Virus record (IMG/VR): IMGVR_UViG_3300045988_015525
Coordinates: 1-5,592 of that record
DNA: 5,592 nucleotides
Origin: a virus
Direction: 5' to 3' (one strand)
Under the pieces are notes generated by a model. The model made no database searches and had not been told where the DNA came from. It worked only from the letters and a program-made list of their open reading frames with translations. The position numbers were made by a program, and so were the translations under genes. Of this stretch, positions 1 through 5,592 are shown one piece after another. The stretch's first letter is position 1. Each line of letters begins with the position of its first letter.

Positions 1-119
1 CGCCATACTCACCGCAACATAAAAAGCGGATCTTAGAATTATCATGGTAATCTAAATAGCGACGAAGTCGTTTAAAAAATAGCTGCAAATGGTCACGATG
101 CAGCGAGCGATCGGCTGGC
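1..119. repeat. Terminal redundancy, copy 1 (identical to 5474-5592). This is a circularisation overlap of a 5,473-nt genome.
   Basis: Base-by-base comparison of 1-119 with 5474-5592 shows 119/119 identity (offset 5473). The repeat lies inside one continuous reading frame (VP4). Confidence 0.95.
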
Positions 120-400
120 AAACAATCATCATTGTAAGTAAGCGTAATAAAGCAATTATGTAAATGCAGTTTAGCTTCATGTACACAACGAATAGCCCAG
201 TCATTAGCCTTGTCAAGACGGCAGCCAAGACATTGACCACACGGAACAACAACAGCAGAACCGGCAGCTAATTCATTTTTAGCATATTCCAAGGATTTGC
301 CAGCAAGATCACGATAAGACAAAAAATTAGAAAGCTCATATTTACCGTTAGCATTGGGAGAAATAGAGCGTTTCGCAAACAAAGGATGAAGGCAAGTCAT
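1..400 (-). CDS. VP4: Replication initiator VP4 (HUH rolling-circle endonuclease), 5' part. ATG at 400, runs off the window start and continues at 5473 on the circle. Full gene is 400..1 + 5473..4929 = 945 nt, 314 aa.
   Basis: My translation of the minus strand from ATG 400: MTCLHPLFAKRSISPNANGKYELSNFLSYRDLAGKSLEYAKNELAAGSAVVVPCGQCLGCRLDKANDWAIRCVHEAKLHLHNCFITLTYNDDCLPADRSLHRDHLQLFFKRL... There is no stop down to base 1. It is in frame with track ORF 4929..5561 (5561-5473=88; 400-88=312, a multiple of 3). The PCGQCxGCR cysteine cluster and FITLTY (motif 1) are typical of gokushovirus VP4. It is missing from the ORF track because it has no stop inside the window. Confidence 0.9.
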   Translation of the reverse strand, partial: MTCLHPLFAKRSISPNANGKYELSNFLSYRDLAGKSLEYAKNELAAGSAVVVPCGQCLGCRLDKANDWAIRCVHEAKLHLHNCFITLTYNDDCLPADRSLHRDHLQLFFKRLRRYLDYHDNSKIRFLCCGEYG

Positions 401-421
401 AATACACACACTTTCTCAACG

Positions 422-535
422 TTACATGCGGATACCACCACGCATATTACGTGATTTAAGATTCTTAAGACGTGGAACAGCGTGATTACGAAAATTACGG
501 CGAGATGCTCCACGAGAAATTTTACTTCTTCTCAT
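422..535 (-). CDS. 37-aa arginine-rich small basic protein, a likely DNA-binding/packaging protein (phiX174 J / chlamydiaphage ORF8-VP8 type)
   Basis: ATG 535..533, TAA 424..422. Translation: MRRSKISRGASRRNFRNHAVPRLKNLKSRNMRGGIRM (10 Arg, 3 Lys, no Asp/Glu). SD TAAGGAGTAAGAAAA precedes the ATG. It sits between the VP2-side genes and VP4 and is below the ORF-track length cutoff. Confidence 0.6.
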   Translation of the reverse strand: MRRSKISRGASRRNFRNHAVPRLKNLKSRNMRGGIRM

Positions 536-573
536 TTTTCTTACTCCTTAAATAAAGACCAAGACACAAGATG

Positions 574-843
574 TTAAGAATTTTTTCCCAAAAAGCGGGA
601 GTAGCTTTTTTCTTCCGTCGCTGCAGCTGCTGCGTGGCGAAAGCCATTTACGTCGTCTTGACCTCTTTTCTGCATATTAACAAGGTCATCCTGCACAGCA
701 AGTGAGATAGCTTTAAGACTTGAAGAGCCTTCACGGTCATACTTACCGGTGCGAAACATGTCAATAAAATCAACAACTTCCTGAATAAAAGGAATAACGG
801 TAGAAACGAGAAATGTCAGAATAGCAGTAGTTTTGTTGGACAT
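574..843 (-). CDS. Hypothetical 89-aa protein with a single N-terminal hydrophobic helix
   Basis: Track ORF. GAGGTGA SD lies 7-8 nt upstream of the ATG (coding strand aaaTGAGGTGATTAATTATG, where the TGA is the VP2 stop). Residues ~6-20 (TAILTFLVSTVIPFI) are hydrophobic and the rest is charged. I recognise no family motif. Confidence 0.6.
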   Translation of the reverse strand: MSNKTTAILTFLVSTVIPFIQEVVDFIDMFRTGKYDREGSSSLKAISLAVQDDLVNMQKRGQDDVNGFRHAAAAATEEKSYSRFLGKNS

Positions 844-854
844 AATTAATCACC

Positions 855-1652
855 TCATTTAGAAAAATAACTAGCAATACCGGAAAACAAACGATTAGCG
901 GCACGGCCAACAGTATTCCAAGGCAGGCCGTCATCTGAAAGGCCAAGATCTTTATAATCCTTATTACGAGAAGTCTTATAATCATAATCAGCCTTAGCAA
1001 CATAAGATAATTGATTATTATAAGCGGCGGAACTATTAGCGGCATTTCCTTGAGCAATCATCATATTAGCTTGAGCCGGCATAACAACATTGCGCTGATA
1101 AAGAGCATTTTGAGTTTGCTCATCAATTAACTGACCTTGTTTTTCAGCATTAAGTAAATTCTGTTTATACAAAGCAACATTGTCAGCATAAGTATCAGTA
1201 GCTAATTTATTAGCAATAGTTTTTCCAGCAGCTTCAGCTTCGAAATTTTTAGCAGTAGCAGCATTCAAAAGCACATCAGAATCTAACTTTTTAACAGTGC
1301 CTTCACCGACACGTTGAGCAGTATCAGCCTGCTTTTGAGCAGCCTTAGCAGAGCTACCAGCAGCCTGGGAAGACATACCAGCAGTAACTCCTTCACCTAG
1401 ATTATACTGACTAGCAAGGGCGGATGCACCGTTAACGGAACCACCAATACCAGAAGTAGCAGCAAGCATAGGGTTTAACCCGGCCTTTTGCATATCTTCC
1501 ATGGACCACTGATAACGATGCTGATAATTATATTGATTACGTTGATTAGCTACCGTTGCAGCATGACGATCAGCAGAGTTAGATAAAGCACCACCAATGA
1601 TAGACGCAATGCCACCAGTAACAGCTCCAAGAGCAGATCCAAGAAATGACAT
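855..1652 (-). CDS. VP2: Minor capsid / DNA pilot protein VP2
   Basis: 265 aa. It has a Gly/Ala-rich hydrophobic N-terminus (MSFLGSALGAVTGGIASIIGGALS), then NYQHRYQWSMEDMQKAGLNPMLA and a long Ala/Gln/Asn-rich helical region, which is the pattern I associate with gokushovirus VP2. It lies immediately downstream of VP1 with an AAGGAGTGA SD. Confidence 0.85.
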   Translation of the reverse strand: MSFLGSALGAVTGGIASIIGGALSNSADRHAATVANQRNQYNYQHRYQWSMEDMQKAGLNPMLAATSGIGGSVNGASALASQYNLGEGVTAGMSSQAAGSSAKAAQKQADTAQRVGEGTVKKLDSDVLLNAATAKNFEAEAAGKTIANKLATDTYADNVALYKQNLLNAEKQGQLIDEQTQNALYQRNVVMPAQANMMIAQGNAANSSAAYNNQLSYVAKADYDYKTSRNKDYKDLGLSDDGLPWNTVGRAANRLFSGIASYFSK

Positions 1653-1669
1653 AGAAAATCACTCCTTTT

Positions 1670-3310
1670 TTAGAAATGCCCCATCATACCGGGTATGCCA
1701 TACATAGGCATTGGACGAATACACTTAAGGTTAAATTTAACATCTAACAAAAAGTGAGGATAACTAGGAACAGCAACAACACGGCTAATGGGCGGATGGT
1801 CTTGAATAAACTCATCAGAAAGCGTAGGAAGCGTAGCAAACTTTTGAGAAAGATGCCAAACATCAAGAGGTTCTTTATAGGTCGAACGGAATTGACCGGT
1901 AATCAAAGACGGCTTGTAACGATATTCTGCGTAACGTTCCTGATAACCGAAAACTTTCTTGTCAGCGTCATTTCCTTGACAATAAATTTCAATGTTTTGA
2001 ATAGCCTGTTCGCCGAGATGAGCAAAAGACGGCCAATAAAAATCAAGCACATCAGAGCGCAGCCACATTTTATTAATACCTTGCTGGTAAGTCAAATCAG
2101 CACGAACATTAATAAGGCCTATGATATAACCAAATTCGCTAAAAGATTTAGTAAAGGCATGATACCTTTGAGCGTTAAGGCCATATGCAGCTAAATTACC
2201 TTGTGGAGAAGTAGAATCAGTAGAGCTAGTTTGAGTAACCGGATTAATATTCATCATGCTAGAATGAGAGCCGAGAAACTCCGGACGTTGCAAACGGGCG
2301 TCGGGATTCGTAACGCCGAAGTGAGCTTGCAGTTTTTCCGTATAACGTGTACCACCTCTAGCATCAATCTCGTAGTAGCGTTGCAGCATAAACGCTTGAC
2401 GAAGTGAATTAATAGTAACCATGGAAACATTAGAAAGATCAGCATAAACACCAGAATCATTTTTTAAATCAAGTTTATGCGTAAAATTTGCGTTATAGGA
2501 GCCAAAAGCAATCATGTTGTTAGGCCAATCAGCATTAACAGCACCGGAAAGAAAAGCAGATTTACCGGTAGAAGAATCAGTAAGCTTAATACCGGAATCC
2601 GACAAAACCGGAGCAGAACCGCCTAAAGGCAAATCAACAGCCGGGCCTTTTTGTGGCCACGGAAGAGCACCGGTAAAATAATCATATCTTTTTCCACGCG
2701 GGGCCGGGTCATACCAGTTAGATATACCGGACGGCAAGCCATAATTAGGGTTGGCGGTAGATTGTCCCATAGGTTCGAGCACAGTACTTGTTTCACCTTT
2801 ACTAACTTTAACAGATTTTTGTAAGTTCTCATCGCGGAACCACTCGTTCCATATAGTCCAGTAGCAGCGAAAAGGCAAGCAGTTAACGGAAATATTATTA
2901 AATGTACCAGAAGCGCAAGCGATACCCATATAATCGGGGAGCTTATTTGTCATATCGCCGGTCAAAGAAACAGTAGGTACAAGGTAGTCCGTCGAATCTT
3001 CTGGGTTCTCCTGCTCACCACATAAATTTACCCATTTATCATATACGAGCCTACTTGGAACAAAAAAGAAGAAAGACTCAATATAAATGTTATCCATAAA
3101 CGGCACAACCGGAGTAGCCAAACGGCAGAACTCCACAGGATTGAGAGTGAACGTATCGCCTGGAATAACTTCATCCACAAAGTAGGGGATGAGCTGGCCT
3201 TCGTTAAAAGTCGTCTTATAGACATGACTTCTATCAAAAACGGAACGGCGAATATTAGCTTGTGGAATCATCGCAAAGTGCGACTGATTAACACGGATAT
3301 TTCGAGCCAT
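1670..3310 (-). CDS. VP1: Major capsid protein VP1 (Microviridae F-type jelly-roll capsid)
   Basis: 546 aa. Motifs seen: N-terminal HFAMIPQANIRRSVFDRSH...TFNEGQLIPYFVDEVIPGDTF, DYFTGALPWPQKG, TINSLRQAFMLQRYYEIDARGGTRYTE, and C-terminal NLKCIRPMPMYGIPG. All are hallmark gokushovirus VP1 blocks. AAGGAG SD lies 9 nt upstream of ATG 3310. Confidence 0.95.
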   Translation of the reverse strand: MARNIRVNQSHFAMIPQANIRRSVFDRSHVYKTTFNEGQLIPYFVDEVIPGDTFTLNPVEFCRLATPVVPFMDNIYIESFFFFVPSRLVYDKWVNLCGEQENPEDSTDYLVPTVSLTGDMTNKLPDYMGIACASGTFNNISVNCLPFRCYWTIWNEWFRDENLQKSVKVSKGETSTVLEPMGQSTANPNYGLPSGISNWYDPAPRGKRYDYFTGALPWPQKGPAVDLPLGGSAPVLSDSGIKLTDSSTGKSAFLSGAVNADWPNNMIAFGSYNANFTHKLDLKNDSGVYADLSNVSMVTINSLRQAFMLQRYYEIDARGGTRYTEKLQAHFGVTNPDARLQRPEFLGSHSSMMNINPVTQTSSTDSTSPQGNLAAYGLNAQRYHAFTKSFSEFGYIIGLINVRADLTYQQGINKMWLRSDVLDFYWPSFAHLGEQAIQNIEIYCQGNDADKKVFGYQERYAEYRYKPSLITGQFRSTYKEPLDVWHLSQKFATLPTLSDEFIQDHPPISRVVAVPSYPHFLLDVKFNLKCIRPMPMYGIPGMMGHF

Positions 3311-3361
3311 TTTAAAAACTCCTTAATTTTAATAAACGACCGAAAAGCACGAGAACGGCAT

Positions 3362-3381
3362 TTTCGTTATCAAATACGAAA
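3362..3381 (-). other. Small stem-loop: 6-bp stem (TTTCGT/ACGAAA) with 8-nt loop ATTTGATA on the coding strand
   Basis: Plus strand tttcgt(3362-3367) tatcaaat(3368-3375) acgaaa(3376-3381). The arms are exact reverse complements. Confidence 0.5.
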
Positions 3382-3431
3382 TTAATAAAAGATAATTAGA
3401 AGCCCTTTTTTAAAGGGTTTTTCGTATTTTG

Positions 3432-3479
3432 TGTCACCTTGACCAGTTACTATCAAGTAGGTAACTGGTCAAGGTGACA
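3432..3479 (-). promoter_or_regulatory. Perfect 19-bp inverted repeat with 10-nt loop in the VP3-VP1 intergenic region. Candidate replication-origin stem-loop; alternatives are a complementary-strand origin or an RNA structure.
   Basis: 3432-3450 tgtcaccttgaccagttac is the exact reverse complement of 3461-3479 gtaactggtcaaggtgaca. The loop 3451-3460 is tatcaagtag, which reads CTACTTGATA on the coding strand. Confidence 0.6.
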
Positions 3480-3517
3480 GGGTTATTATTCTACATAAGT
3501 GAATATTAGCATATAAG

Positions 3518-3961
3518 TTATTTTTGCTCTAAATTACTCTCTCCTGCTACCGGAGTGACAGGTTCTACCGGACTATCTACAATAGCTTTAGGTTTTAGGC
3601 CTAACTCCTCTAGTCTGTTTGTAACCTTAGGATCAGTAGACGTTAGAGCATCAAGCAAGTTACGAGGATCATTACCAAATTCAGCACGAACATTAGAAGG
3701 CAAATCTGCAAACTCAGCATTTACATTAGCAACAAGGTTGCAAGCAGTTTCATAGTCCGGGAGCAAAGTAGTATCGCCATATTGCAAAGTTGCCGGATCA
3801 TGTGCGCCAACAGAATCTACAATGCCGGTAGTGTTAAAGTTAGCAATGATGTGATGAATATCGCATTCATCAGCATAAGTCTGATCAGCGAGTGAAGGCT
3901 GCGTAATTTCTACGTGCGGTTTTGGCGGTTGTTCGTCATAGAGCGTGTAAAACTTAGCCAT
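3518..3961 (-). CDS. VP3: Internal scaffolding protein VP3
   Basis: 147 aa. PSLADQTYADECDIHHIIANFNTTG ... YGD ... PDYETACNLVANVNAEFADLPSNVRAEFGNDPRNLL ... LEELGL matches the conserved gokushovirus VP3 pattern (PSLTDQS..ECDIN.I...F..TG; F..LP..(I/V)R..F.NDP..(F/L)L). GAAAGGAG SD lies upstream of ATG 3961. Confidence 0.85.
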   Translation of the reverse strand: MAKFYTLYDEQPPKPHVEITQPSLADQTYADECDIHHIIANFNTTGIVDSVGAHDPATLQYGDTTLLPDYETACNLVANVNAEFADLPSNVRAEFGNDPRNLLDALTSTDPKVTNRLEELGLKPKAIVDSPVEPVTPVAGESNLEQK

Positions 3962-4098
3962 AGCTTAAAATCTCCTTTCTTTACCCGACAAGGCACGAGT
4001 AACGATTTATGTAAGCGTAGGCCTGCGCCGTGTTACGAAGATATGATATAGACGGAGTGACCGACAGCAAAGCACAGTCATTTTGGCATAGCCAAAAT

Positions 4099-4494
4099 TT
4101 AAAAACAAAAAAGACGCTCAACATTACGCTGAACGCCTTTAATGTGTGGTATTACCACTTGCCTTATATGTAGTATACCACGAAATGAGAAAGCAGGCAA
4201 GCGTACGTTACAATTACATTTTAACACCCTCCGGGGGGGGGTCAATAGCTCCGTAGCGGTAGACAAGAGCAAAGTGGGATTTTGTGGGGAAAATTCGCAG
4301 GTTTTATCGTCGAACTCTCCGAGATACATCAGCACGAAGTCCTCGTGGTAATCATGGATAATATTAGAACGCTCCGGAGTGGACGGCTGGTTGACCATGA
4401 TCTGAAATTGACGAATAGCCATAGCATTATTTTGTTGGGTAAAAGGCGGGTTCATCAACTCGCCTTTTCTGTCATAAATACAGTAAAGTTTCAT
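4099..4494 (-). CDS. VP5: VP5-like non-structural protein. The ORF as given is 131 aa, but only residues ~1-87 look genuine. The tail after the C9 tract reads through regulatory sequence.
   Basis: N-terminal MKLYCIYDRKGELMNPPFTQQNNAMAIRQFQIMVN...HEDFVLMYLGEFDDKTCEF fits the small gokushovirus ORF5/VP5 pattern I recall (MK.F.IYD.K....PF......A.R.F...VN....P.DF.L...G.FDD.T). The AAGGAGTGA SD is embedded in the end of the upstream ORF. The C-terminal 44 codons overlap a promoter-like element and a terminator hairpin. Confidence 0.65.
   Translation of the reverse strand: MKLYCIYDRKGELMNPPFTQQNNAMAIRQFQIMVNQPSTPERSNIIHDYHEDFVLMYLGEFDDKTCEFSPQNPTLLLSTATELLTPPRRVLKCNCNVRLPAFSFRGILHIRQVVIPHIKGVQRNVERLFCF
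4101..4137 (-). terminator. Rho-independent terminator on the coding strand
   Basis: The coding-strand RNA is GGCGUUCAGC-GUAAU-GUUGAGCGUC followed by UUUUUUGUUUUU. This is a 10-bp stem (7 Watson-Crick plus 3 G-U pairs), a 5-nt loop and a U-tract. The three G-U pairs would be C-A mismatches in a plus-strand transcript, so the hairpin is specific to the coding direction. Confidence 0.6.
4172..4200 (-). promoter_or_regulatory. Promoter-like element P2: TTGCCT - 17 nt - TGgTATACT
   Basis: Coding strand: TTGCCT (4200..4195), 17-nt spacer, extended -10 TGG (4180..4178), TATACT (4177..4172). It shares the 10-mer TCGTGGTATA with promoter P1. Confidence 0.4.
4233..4241 (-). repeat. Homopolymer: G9 on the plus strand, C9 on the coding strand, inside VP5 codons 85-88
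   Basis: Direct count: 4233-4241 are all g. The coding strand reads ACC CCC CCC CGG. Confidence 0.95.
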
Positions 4495-4498
4495 GAAA

Positions 4499-4837
4499 TC
4501 ACTCCTTTAAACCATAAAGACGAGCAAAGTCGGAAATATGATAGTGTTTAAGGGAAAAACCGAACTGCTTGTTACAAGCAACATCATTAACTAGCGTAGC
4601 AATAAAGAGCTTAAAACGATGAAAGAAATCTTTGCTAGCGATATAATAAAAAGAATCATAAAGAAAGATAACATCATCATAGCGACCGTTATCACCTTTT
4701 ACACAATTAGCAGCACGATAACTGCGAGCCTGAGCATAAGAGGTAAAAATCAAATGACGAGGGATTTTCTCCAAAACTTCATAAACATTTTGCTGATCTT
4801 CAACAGGTAAACTAGAATCAAAATAATCTTTTAACAT
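4499..4837 (-). CDS. Hypothetical 112-aa protein (accessory gene, unknown function)
   Basis: This is track ORF 4499..4924 trimmed to ATG 4837, which is preceded by GTGAGGT 8 nt upstream. The TTG-initiated 29-codon extension would be encoded by the tandem decamers and the promoter hexamers. Protein: MLKDYFDSSLPVEDQQNVYEVLEKIPRHL... I recognise no motif and see no hydrophobic helix. Confidence 0.6.
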   Translation of the reverse strand: MLKDYFDSSLPVEDQQNVYEVLEKIPRHLIFTSYAQARSYRAANCVKGDNGRYDDVIFLYDSFYYIASKDFFHRFKLFIATLVNDVACNKQFGFSLKHYHISDFARLYGLKE

Positions 4838-4862
4838 ATTGCATACCTCACTTTCTGTATAT

Positions 4863-4891
4863 ATTATACCACGAGGAAACGCAACTGTCAA
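4863..4891 (-). promoter_or_regulatory. Promoter P1: consensus TTGACA - 17 nt - TGgTATAAT
   Basis: Coding strand: TTGACA (4891..4886), 17-nt spacer gttgcgtttcctcgtgg, TATAAT (4868..4863) with extended -10 TG at 4871..4870. Both hexamers match consensus 6/6 at optimal spacing, about 26 nt upstream of ATG 4837. Confidence 0.7.
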
Positions 4892-4930
4892 CAACTTTTT
4901 ACAACTTTTTACAACTTTTCGCAACTTTTT
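4881..4930 (-). repeat. Five tandem 10-bp units (phased A-tracts) running from the VP4 stop codon into the -35 element
   Basis: Coding strand: AAAAAGTTGC / GAAAAGTTGT / AAAAAGTTGT / AAAAAGTTGT / TGACAGTTGC. The period is exactly 10 bp. The plus strand reads gcaactgtca acaacttttt acaacttttt acaacttttc gcaacttttt. Confidence 0.9.
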
Positions 4931-5592
4931 ATAAACCTAAATTATCAAAATCACGCTCAAATTGTTCCTGCCGATGCTTTAAAATCTTCTCCTTGGCTTC
5001 CAAACGCTTACAATCTATAATAGCAGCCTTAGCATTTTCAGCCTTATTTTGCTTGTATATGCTATACCAAACAGGATTACTGCGCTCAAAAAGTGTTTGA
5101 TAATAACGAGGGATCTTATACTTAGCTCCGTTGATAGTAACAAAACCAAGCTTAAAAATATCCTCAGAATAAAGGCCGAAATAGTCTGCTCCTATGCCTG
5201 GCTTTAAAGAGCTGCCGACAAACTCCGGAGTAATGCCTAAAGCGTCATACATACAGGCATTTTTTCCAGTTTGTTTTTTTAGGCTATATTTAGCGACATA
5301 CCGGGCGGACTCAAATGTAATAGCTCCCACAGTGTTATAGCCATACGGCCAAAGCTTCTCCAAAGTCGGAGAGCGGAAAAGGTTGTAACCAGCTGTTAGC
5401 GCCGAGACTTTACGGACATCGATAGGAAACCAACCAAAGCACAAAATATGATAATGTGGACGGCGATTGAGATCGCCATACTCACCGCAACATAAAAAGC
5501 GGATCTTAGAATTATCATGGTAATCTAAATAGCGACGAAGTCGTTTAAAAAATAGCTGCAAATGGTCACGATGCAGCGAGCGATCGGCTGGC
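4929..5592 (-). CDS. VP4: Replication initiator VP4, 3' part. Stop TAA at 4931..4929; the ORF is open to the window end, and 5474-5592 duplicates 1-119.
   Basis: HUH motif RPHYHILCFG (HYH = 5456..5448). Two-tyrosine active site ARYVAKYSLKK (YVAKY = 5300..5286, verified as TAT GTC GCT AAA TAT). This is the Y-x-x-K-Y arrangement known from phiX174 protein A. The M at 5561 in the track is an internal TTG, not the real start. Confidence 0.93.
   Translation of the reverse strand, partial: PADRSLHRDHLQLFFKRLRRYLDYHDNSKIRFLCCGEYGDLNRRPHYHILCFGWFPIDVRKVSALTAGYNLFRSPTLEKLWPYGYNTVGAITFESARYVAKYSLKKQTGKNACMYDALGITPEFVGSSLKPGIGADYFGLYSEDIFKLGFVTINGAKYKIPRYYQTLFERSNPVWYSIYKQNKAENAKAAIIDCKRLEAKEKILKHRQEQFERDFDNLGL
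5474..5592. repeat. Terminal redundancy, copy 2 (identical to 1-119)
   Basis: See copy 1. Confidence 0.95.

Follow-up and report, generated by a model that had tools for sequence, protein, structure and literature searches.

A conserved intergenic hairpin with a phiX174-like nick motif as a candidate viral-strand replication origin of gokushoviruses

Introduction

The viral-strand origin (ori+) of bacteriophage phiX174 lies inside gene A, where record J02482 reads ccccCAACTTGATATTAATAACACTATAGACCAC and annotates the replication origin at position 4306, the A after the G. Cleavage occurs between G4305 and A4306 within the 30-nucleotide (nt) ori+, and the catalytic residues are Tyr343 and Tyr347 (2026 preprint). 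The DNA treated here, referred to as the window, is a stretch of 5,592 nt from a virus (positions 1 to 5,592 of IMG/VR record IMGVR_UViG_3300045988_015525), and the element in question is a perfect hairpin at 3432-3479, between the genes VP3 and VP1, whose loop carries a phiX174-like nick motif. An earlier note on the window had proposed this hairpin as a candidate viral-strand replication origin that would be nicked by the phage's own Rep protein (VP4).

Baas, Jansz and Hurwitz are said to have described the phiX174 origin as a recognition sequence followed by an AT-rich spacer and a binding sequence. Other rolling-circle (RC) systems display the nick site in the loop of a hairpin. Among RC plasmids these include the origins of pMV158/pLS1 (IR-I, TACTACG/AC) and pT181 (IR-II), and the origins of geminiviruses, circoviruses and nanoviruses are stem-loops with the nonanucleotide TAATATT^AC. 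Within the microviruses, roodoodooviruses and reekeekeeviruses are described as having intergenic hairpins in which the loop is conserved and the stem changes are compensatory (Olo Ndela et al. 2022, PMC9865509).

The hairpin is read here as the viral-strand RC origin of this gokushovirus and of gokushoviruses generally, with a predicted VP4 nick at TACTTG^AT. Judged from comparison of sequences, the probability of this reading is put at roughly 0.75.

A hairpin loop with the phiX174 nick core

The element has the following parts.

3432-3479, minus strand: perfect hairpin of 19 base pairs (bp), with the 5' arm at 3479-3461, the loop at 3460-3451 and the 3' arm at 3450-3432
3451-3460, minus strand: loop CTACTTGATA, with the predicted Rep nick between G3454 and A3453 (TACTTG^AT)
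3430-3460, minus strand: ori+-like stretch of 31 nt, with the recognition block CTACTTGATA, the 3'-arm spacer and TGACAC at 3436-3431

The two 19-nt arms (3432-3450 and 3461-3479) pair at all 19 positions and are separated by 10 nt, and the gene coordinates place them between VP3 and VP1, about 40 nt past the VP3 stop codon. Thus, the perfect 19-bp intergenic hairpin with a 10-nt loop described in the earlier note is confirmed, as is its assignment of the coding strand to the minus strand, which carries every gene of the window. This stem is by far the longest in the window; in 40 dinucleotide-preserving shuffles of the whole genome the maximum perfect stem was 7-11 bp. Folded as single-stranded DNA (ssDNA), a 58-nt stretch reaches -21.0 kcal/mol compared with -5.5 +/- 1.9 kcal/mol for shuffled sequence (z = -8.2), and the corresponding elements of an Escherichia coli prophage and of the isolate Chp2 reach -14 to -14.5 kcal/mol. 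The nick motif sits in the loop of a stable hairpin and can thus be exposed as ssDNA.

On the minus strand the loop and the first stem bases read CTACTTGATAGTAAC. The window has a single copy of ACTTGATA (3451-3458, minus strand), where chance would give 0.26. The loop core is identical to the phiX174 nick core ACTTG^AT, and a longer comparison, of ACTTGATAGTAA with ACTTGATATTAA, gives the 11/12 identity that had been claimed. That claim depended on a phiX174 origin given as CAACTTG^ATA..., on which J02482 and the 2026 preprint agree. By analogy with phiX174, the nick would fall between G3454 and A3453.

The initiators are also related. The HUH and YVAKY chemistry attributed to the window Rep is borne out by an HYH and a YVAKY motif; in phiX174 protein A, YVAKY is found at residue 343. 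The two proteins are 27% identical over 120 amino acids (aa) that include motifs 1-2 (E = 6e-6). In the available text of a phylogenetic report, the Reps of Bullavirinae and Gokushovirinae are monophyletic (PMC6668415).

The likeness to phiX174 extends past the nick site. A second conserved block, (A/G)(G/C)TGACAC, directly follows the 3' arm; the bases after the stem in the window are CAAAATACGA. Of 91 unique elements, 68 have GTGACA at a fixed offset of 19 nt (20 in the clade of the window), and CTGACA takes its place in most of the others. At this fixed distance the TGACAC block brings the element into register with all 30 nt of the phiX174 origin, the 31 nt found here reflecting one extra loop base in the clade of the window. 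Of the 16 positions that are at least 80% conserved, 13 carry the phiX174 base, and at conserved positions outside the search pattern described below 7 of 10 match (P = 0.0035, in a comparison made after the data were seen). The gokushovirus element and phiX174 alike have GAC at positions 25-27. In phiX174, origin positions 1-27 correspond to codons 107-115, and synonymous changes in these codons, including the D115 GAC codon, are detrimental (2026 preprint). By sequence, the gokushovirus element appears to share the phiX174 outline, with the spacer doubling as the 3' arm of the hairpin. The earlier note had regarded an intergenic, hairpin-displayed origin as a different architecture from that of phiX174. 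The intergenic placement and the hairpin stand, but the difference is smaller than claimed, since the TGACAC block puts the 30 nt in register.

Conservation across gokushoviruses

One hundred genomes were compared (the window, L001-L016 and L023-L105), comprising 17 clade members, 80 distant genomes and three classical isolates. The close relatives are 16 IMG/VR genomes with VP3 proteins 74-100% identical, and each carries the hairpin in its VP3-VP1 intergenic region. Across the 17 clade members (the window and these 16) the loop core TACTTGAT does not vary. The loop opens with C or G and closes with A or C, and it is 11 nt long in two genomes. Compensatory stem changes occur in L002 (C:G to A:T), L010 (C:G to T:A), L015 (two top pairs) and L016 (three adjacent pairs).

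The distant set consists of 80 gokushovirus contigs that were fetched by alignment of Rep homologues and have Reps 36-46% identical. In a search that made no use of the motif, the element was the longest perfect hairpin of the genome in 53 of these 80, for example AGCACAGTTAC-tctacttgat-GTAACTGTGCT. The pattern CT[TA]G[AT]T with a perfect stem of at least 7 bp is present in 97 of the 100 genomes (98 with L056, which has a 6-bp stem), a figure in which part of the motif conservation is inherent in the pattern. The loop core across gokushoviruses is TACTTG(A/T)T. The search for hairpin and motif did not find the element in L072, L076 and L099, all contigs without terminal repeats, and L072 and L099 look incomplete. 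L076 is a shorter relative of L064.

The element is also the genome's longest hairpin in each of the classical isolates: CTAGCGTATAACAG-tctacttgat-CTGTTATACGCTAG in Chp2, TGGGGCATAT-attacttgttata-ATATGCCCCA in SpV4 and AGTTCGGCTAC-ggaccctacttgttgtaa-GTAGCCGAACT in phiMH2K. VP1 matches were found in 7 of 5,426 complete genomes. Chromosomal gokushovirus prophages of E. coli beside hipBA carry CCTGGCACAGT-gccctacttgatgta-ACTGTGCCAGG between VP3 and VP1; examples are those of E. coli C41 (L112, 2677-6963; NZ_CP127252) and E. coli C5 (L113; NZ_CP010122), which have the gene order of the window and the same hairpin and TGACACC element. The hosts covered are Chlamydia, Spiroplasma, Bdellovibrio and E. 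coli, in addition to many metagenomes, and the element goes with the Rep lineage independent of host (98 of 100 genomes). Conservation over four host groups makes a phage Rep more likely than a host factor as the reader of the element. The expectation of the earlier note, that the loop would be conserved and the stem would co-vary among relatives, holds far beyond the close relatives.

A competing conserved ACTTGATA-like site elsewhere in the genome, which the earlier note had raised as a possible objection, did not appear: copies of the motif that lie outside hairpins number about 1.8-2.0 per genome and strand, compared with a back-of-envelope chance value of about 2.2. The 14-mer ACTTGATGTAACTG has more than 120 exact matches in IMG/VR. 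It is flanked by a hairpin in 57 of 81 microvirus-size loci versus 2 of 27 larger loci, where the matches are probably chance copies.

Two of six more distant microviruses carry a similar element. The longest hairpin of Parabacteroides phage YZ-2015a (L106, NC_029012), at 2285-2321, has the loop gaggtaACTTGATAaatta, which is 9/9 identical with AACTTGATA of phiX174. It lies inside an annotated 60-aa hypothetical coding sequence (2251-2433), which may therefore be non-coding. The hairpin of Tortoise microvirus 64 has the loop ctctCTTGACtt.

Selection on pairing and on sequence

Covariation was assessed in an alignment of 53 distinct elements with 13 stem pairs. All 13 pairs show changes on both sides. 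Double-change cells number 107 compared with 38 +/- 5 in shuffled alignments, a value reached in 0 of 500 shuffles, and the covariation score is 0.385 compared with 0.141 for shuffled alignments and 0.03-0.10 when the partners are slid. The stems of different gokushoviruses are unrelated in sequence while pairing is kept, and they are under selection for pairing. G:T pairs and A:C mismatches are about equally common (26 versus 19 overall, 6 versus 7 in the core pairs). The lack of a G:T excess is unlike an RNA structure and fits pairing that is selected in DNA; the same wobble symmetry is compatible with a single-stranded hairpin and with a cruciform alike. An Rfam scan gave sub-threshold chance matches and nothing above threshold.

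Sequence is constrained in addition to pairing. The motif-anchored consensus is T A C T T G | A T G T A A C, and the upper 3' arm is conserved at 0.96 (T), 0.83 (A) and 0.91 (A) compared with 0.49, 0.77 and 0.79 for the partners in the 5' arm. This asymmetry points to strand-specific reading of the sequence from the loop into the arm, beyond what pairing requires.

These constraints bear on the possibility that the hairpin is a transcription terminator, or a structure stabilizing the 3' end of the mRNA, that closes the VP3 message. The element always lies shortly after the VP3 stop codon, a simple scan calls the hairpin terminator-like (on the non-coding plus strand only), and the intergenic regions of phiX174 hold hairpin terminators (2026 preprint). 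However, a T-run (at least six T in the 10 nt after the 3' arm) is found in 0 of 84 unique elements, with a mean of 1.4 T, and conservation of loop and flank is not something that a terminator requires. The absence of a G:T excess and the constraint on the upper 3' arm likewise argue against a role at the RNA level. Termination as the main role is rejected on the missing T-runs, and the terminator or stabilizing function as a whole is considered extremely unlikely.

A perfect palindrome could also be a site read as duplex DNA, either by a dimeric regulator, by VP5 (presumed to correspond to phiX174 protein C) or by a XerCD-type recombinase at a dif-like site. Protein C of phiX174 acts at the origin (2026 preprint), and some gokushoviruses integrate at dif via XerCD according to the available text on enterogokushoviruses (PMC7062461). 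The arms vary freely provided that they pair, which is the opposite of a half-site read by a protein, and the conserved part consists of an asymmetric loop and a single flank. A duplex site is thus very unlikely, and a VP5 site at the origin would be no true rival since it would still make the hairpin the origin. A dif-type integration site is rejected on two grounds: the element matches E. coli dif at 12 of 28 positions, compared with a shuffled mean of 12.9, and in the E. coli prophages it is internal (VP3-VP1) and away from the integration junction. Over the whole window, the closest approach to dif is 17/28. A promoter -35 element (TTGATA) was likewise rejected, as there is no usable -10 element 17 nt downstream (CACAAA here and ACCGAA in the E. 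coli prophage); a promoter scan of the window found no minus-strand promoter.

Placement, orientation and inverted modules

The element is intergenic in every case, is present in one copy per unit genome and nearly always lies 60-200 nt after the VP3 stop codon. In 58 genomes the order is VP1-VP2-VP3-hairpin-Rep-VP5; in 30, the window among them, it is Rep-VP5-VP3-hairpin-VP1-VP2. Thus, the VP3-VP1 placement given in the earlier note is correct for the window but not as a general rule, which is a position just downstream of VP3. VP3 and the origin seem to travel together through genome rearrangement.

About 97% of genomes (all but three contigs) have the motif on the strand that carries the genes. 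In these three, which come from three different samples and represent two independent lineages (L083 and L101, with VP1 98% identical, and L084), the whole module lies opposite to every gene. The inverted modules are at about 2060-2100 and 6770-6810 in L083, 2243-2291 in L101 and 2411-2458 in L084, and the nearest relatives of L084 (about 61% VP1 identity) carry the usual orientation. In BLAST comparisons the reversed match to relatives is confined to about 45 nt, and the DNA on either side is collinear with theirs. The inversion takes in the asymmetric TGACAC flank, so a flip of the loop alone is rejected as an explanation. In effect the module acts as one unit, reversed in place on at least two occasions.

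L083 (IMGVR_UViG_3300020047_002114, 8,974 nt) consists of two related, non-identical gokushovirus genomes head to tail. It has two Rep, two VP2 and two VP3-like genes, with a separate inverted hairpin module in each genome. The contig may be a heterodimer resulting from RC termination at the wrong origin, or an assembly chimera.

Neighbouring hairpins and complementary-strand synthesis

Two further conserved hairpins lie between the element and VP1.

3372-3429, minus strand: second conserved hairpin, with an outer stem of 3372-3381 paired with 3420-3429 and an inner hairpin at 3403-3417
3341-3366, minus strand: third conserved hairpin, CGAAAA(T)GC...GCTTTTCG, present in the fold and located just upstream of the VP1 ribosome-binding site

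The outer stem of the second hairpin covaries within the clade (AAATACGAA/TTCGTATTT, AAATCAGAA/TTCTGATTT, AAATCTCA/TGAGATTT), and its inner hairpin is terminator-like in the scan, making it a candidate complementary-strand origin or terminator. The third hairpin shows a compensatory change to CAAAAA(T)CC...GGTTTTTG in L002 and L012. For the two hairpins together the candidate roles are a complementary-strand origin, a terminator and control of VP1 expression. Between them, a conserved TATTTGATAAC (3366-3376) echoes the loop motif.

The 19-bp hairpin itself could be a complementary-strand (minus-strand) origin, a duplex-like structure on the packaged strand that is used by the host RNA polymerase, primase or a PriA-type primosome, on the model of the hairpins in the F-G intergenic region of phiX174 and G4, those of filamentous phages and the single-strand origins of plasmids. 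It is the strongest structure on the packaged strand, and plasmid single-strand origins also have conserved loop motifs. A hairpin is present on either strand, which would help explain why inversion is tolerated. Furthermore, the conserved hairpins of other microvirus clades have tentatively been read in this way in the available text of Olo Ndela et al. (PMC9865509). Such an origin, however, predicts neither the identity with the phiX174 Rep nick site nor the TGACAC/GAC block in register. The loop and flank are kept across four very different host groups while known minus-strand origins are host-specific, and two other covarying hairpins (3372-3429 and 3341-3366) are available for this role. 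A complementary-strand origin is therefore unlikely as the explanation of the element, although it may be a second role beside that of nick site.

A second strong hairpin is found at the very start of the Rep gene in some distant gokushoviruses (L029, 2899-2922; L034, 713-734; L057, 802-825), as in ATATCCGCTG-ggct-CAGCGGATAT, and may control the translation of Rep.

Proposed mechanism and weight of the evidence

If the hairpin is the viral-strand origin, the palindrome would be extruded in the supercoiled double-stranded replicative form, exposing the loop as ssDNA. The HUH endonuclease VP4 would read approximately TACTTGAT(G)TAA, in the loop and the upper 3' arm, together with TGACAC at the foot of the 3' arm. 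It would then cut between G and A (3454|3453, minus strand), linking the 5' end to one tyrosine of YVAKY and leaving a 3'-OH that would prime leading-strand synthesis. After one round the hairpin would re-form on the displaced strand, and the second YVAKY tyrosine would cut this strand and re-join it into a circle for packaging. Binding and cutting by VP4, the exact position of the nick and the extrusion of a cruciform are each put forward here as what we infer from the features of the element.

Several points weigh against the origin reading. The search pattern supplied some of the apparent conservation of the motif, and the register with phiX174 was compared after the fact. The phiX174 origin works without a hairpin. 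Perfect-stem searches found no such element in four of the six more distant microviruses. If the module is the origin, the inverted lineages would nick and package the antisense strand, for which we know of no precedent in the Microviridae. Finally, no description of a gokushovirus hairpin or mapping of a gokushovirus origin was found in the open searchable literature, which leaves older subscription papers out of reach and an earlier description possible; searched as text, the motif occurred there in primers only. The nearest account in that literature concerns the conserved hairpins of two other microvirus clades (PMC9865509).

The inverted modules bear on whether the orientation of the origin sets the strand that is packaged. 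A further proposal, possible but doubtful, is that the module of about 45 nt is self-contained and that its orientation determines the strand rolled off and packaged, in which case L083/L101 and L084 would be the first negative-sense members of a positive-sense family. It would also hold that the ancestral origin of the Microviridae was hairpin-displayed and that phiX174-like phages lost the hairpin with the relocation of the origin to gene A.

In gut, marine and soil viromes, gokushoviruses rank among the most abundant ssDNA phages. If the origin reading is true, the module with its predicted nick would give the annotation of thousands of metagenomic microvirus genomes a natural starting coordinate and strand, and would serve as a compact part for gokushovirus-based replicons. 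It would also link the phiX174 origin to a hairpin-displayed ancestor and bring the Microviridae in line with the origins of plasmids and eukaryotic ssDNA viruses. E. coli gokushovirus prophages of the kind that bears the element have been resurrected in the laboratory, according to the available text of that report (PMC7062461).

Genome and gene layout

The first 119 bases of the window (1-119) are identical to the last 119 (5474-5592). This terminal direct repeat indicates that the contig represents the circular genome, 5,473 nt long, of a small gut gokushovirus, on which the following features were assigned.

400 to 1 joined to 5473 to 4929, minus strand: Rep/VP4, 314 aa, an open reading frame (ORF) rebuilt across the circular junction
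4929-5592, minus strand: C-terminal two thirds of Rep/VP4, with the HUH motif HYH and YVAKY (PF23343, phrog_942)
1-400, minus strand: N-terminal part of Rep/VP4, from the ORF reconstruction
4924 to 4499, minus strand: ORF of 141 aa without a Pfam or PHROG match
4494 to 4099, minus strand: VP5, 131 aa, with the Pfam ORF5 domain on residues 3-80 only
3961 to 3518, minus strand: VP3 scaffold (PF09675)
207 nt between VP3 and VP1: intergenic region that holds the hairpin
3310 to 1670, minus strand: VP1 major capsid protein, downstream of the origin region (PF02305, E = 3e-173)
1652 to 855, minus strand: VP2
843 to 574, minus strand: ORF of 89 aa
535 to 422, minus strand: very basic ORF of 37 aa (MRRSKISRGASRRNFRNHAVPRLKNLKSRNMRGGIRM) with a ribosome-binding site, matching phrog_10695 and absent from the ORF list

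Rep/VP4 is the enzyme presumed to act on the hairpin. Its gene is split by the ends of the window, so that ORF lists of the linear window show a 210-aa fragment alone. A search of solved-structure sequences with Rep gave nothing useful. The 141-aa ORF (4499-4924) adjoins Rep and VP5 and is found in 15 of the 16 fetched clade members; its identity falls to 36% where that of neighbouring genes is about 90%, resembling a hypervariable accessory gene. VP5 similarity ends at residue 72 in about half of the clade, and its C-terminal extension is either variable or an overlapping-frame read-through. The basic 37-aa ORF is probably a J/VP8-type DNA-condensing protein. A megablast search against phage records found no close relative at the DNA level and a single weak VP1 match. 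The gene order of the window is that of the enterogokushoviruses in the available text describing them (PMC7062461).

Comparison with known systems

The gokushovirus element and the phiX174 ori+ share the nick core ACTTG^AT, a homologous HUH initiator with YVAKY and a length of about 30 nt. Their end blocks are in register, with agreement at positions 3-9, 11 and 13 and in the GAC at 25-27. They differ in setting and structure. The phiX174 origin is part of gene A, with an AT-rich spacer and no hairpin, whereas the gokushovirus element is intergenic and its spacer pairs with an upstream arm, placing the nick site in a loop.

Origins of the pMV158/pT181 type are similar in that an HUH or other Rep initiator cuts the loop of a hairpin that can be extruded from supercoiled DNA, and the pMV158 nick site TACTACG^AC resembles the gokushovirus TACTTG^AT. 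However, these origins are served by other Rep families and have separate binding loci or iterons. The eukaryotic Rep-encoding ssDNA viruses likewise display a conserved nick motif in a loop, on intergenic hairpins whose stems covary, and in most gokushovirus elements the predicted nick is about 2 nt from the 3' arm, as in the origins of these viruses. They differ in possessing a Rep of an unrelated clade (one tyrosine and a helicase domain), another motif, flanking iterons and often an ambisense genome.

The filamentous phages f1 and M13 are also circular ssDNA phages with a multi-hairpin intergenic region, which in their case holds both origins, and PF23343 (ORF2/G2P), the family matched by the window Rep, also covers the gene II proteins of filamentous phages. 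The f1/M13 region differs in its nick sequence and in the roles of its hairpins, which in f1 include a packaging hairpin. The hairpins of roodoodooviruses and reekeekeeviruses are tied tentatively to minus-strand initiation and are set apart by their description, the available text of which reports no phiX174-like nick motif (Olo Ndela et al. 2022, PMC9865509). Among these systems, the architecture proposed for gokushoviruses would join the nick and binding blocks of phiX174 with the hairpin display of RC plasmids and eukaryotic Rep-encoding ssDNA viruses.

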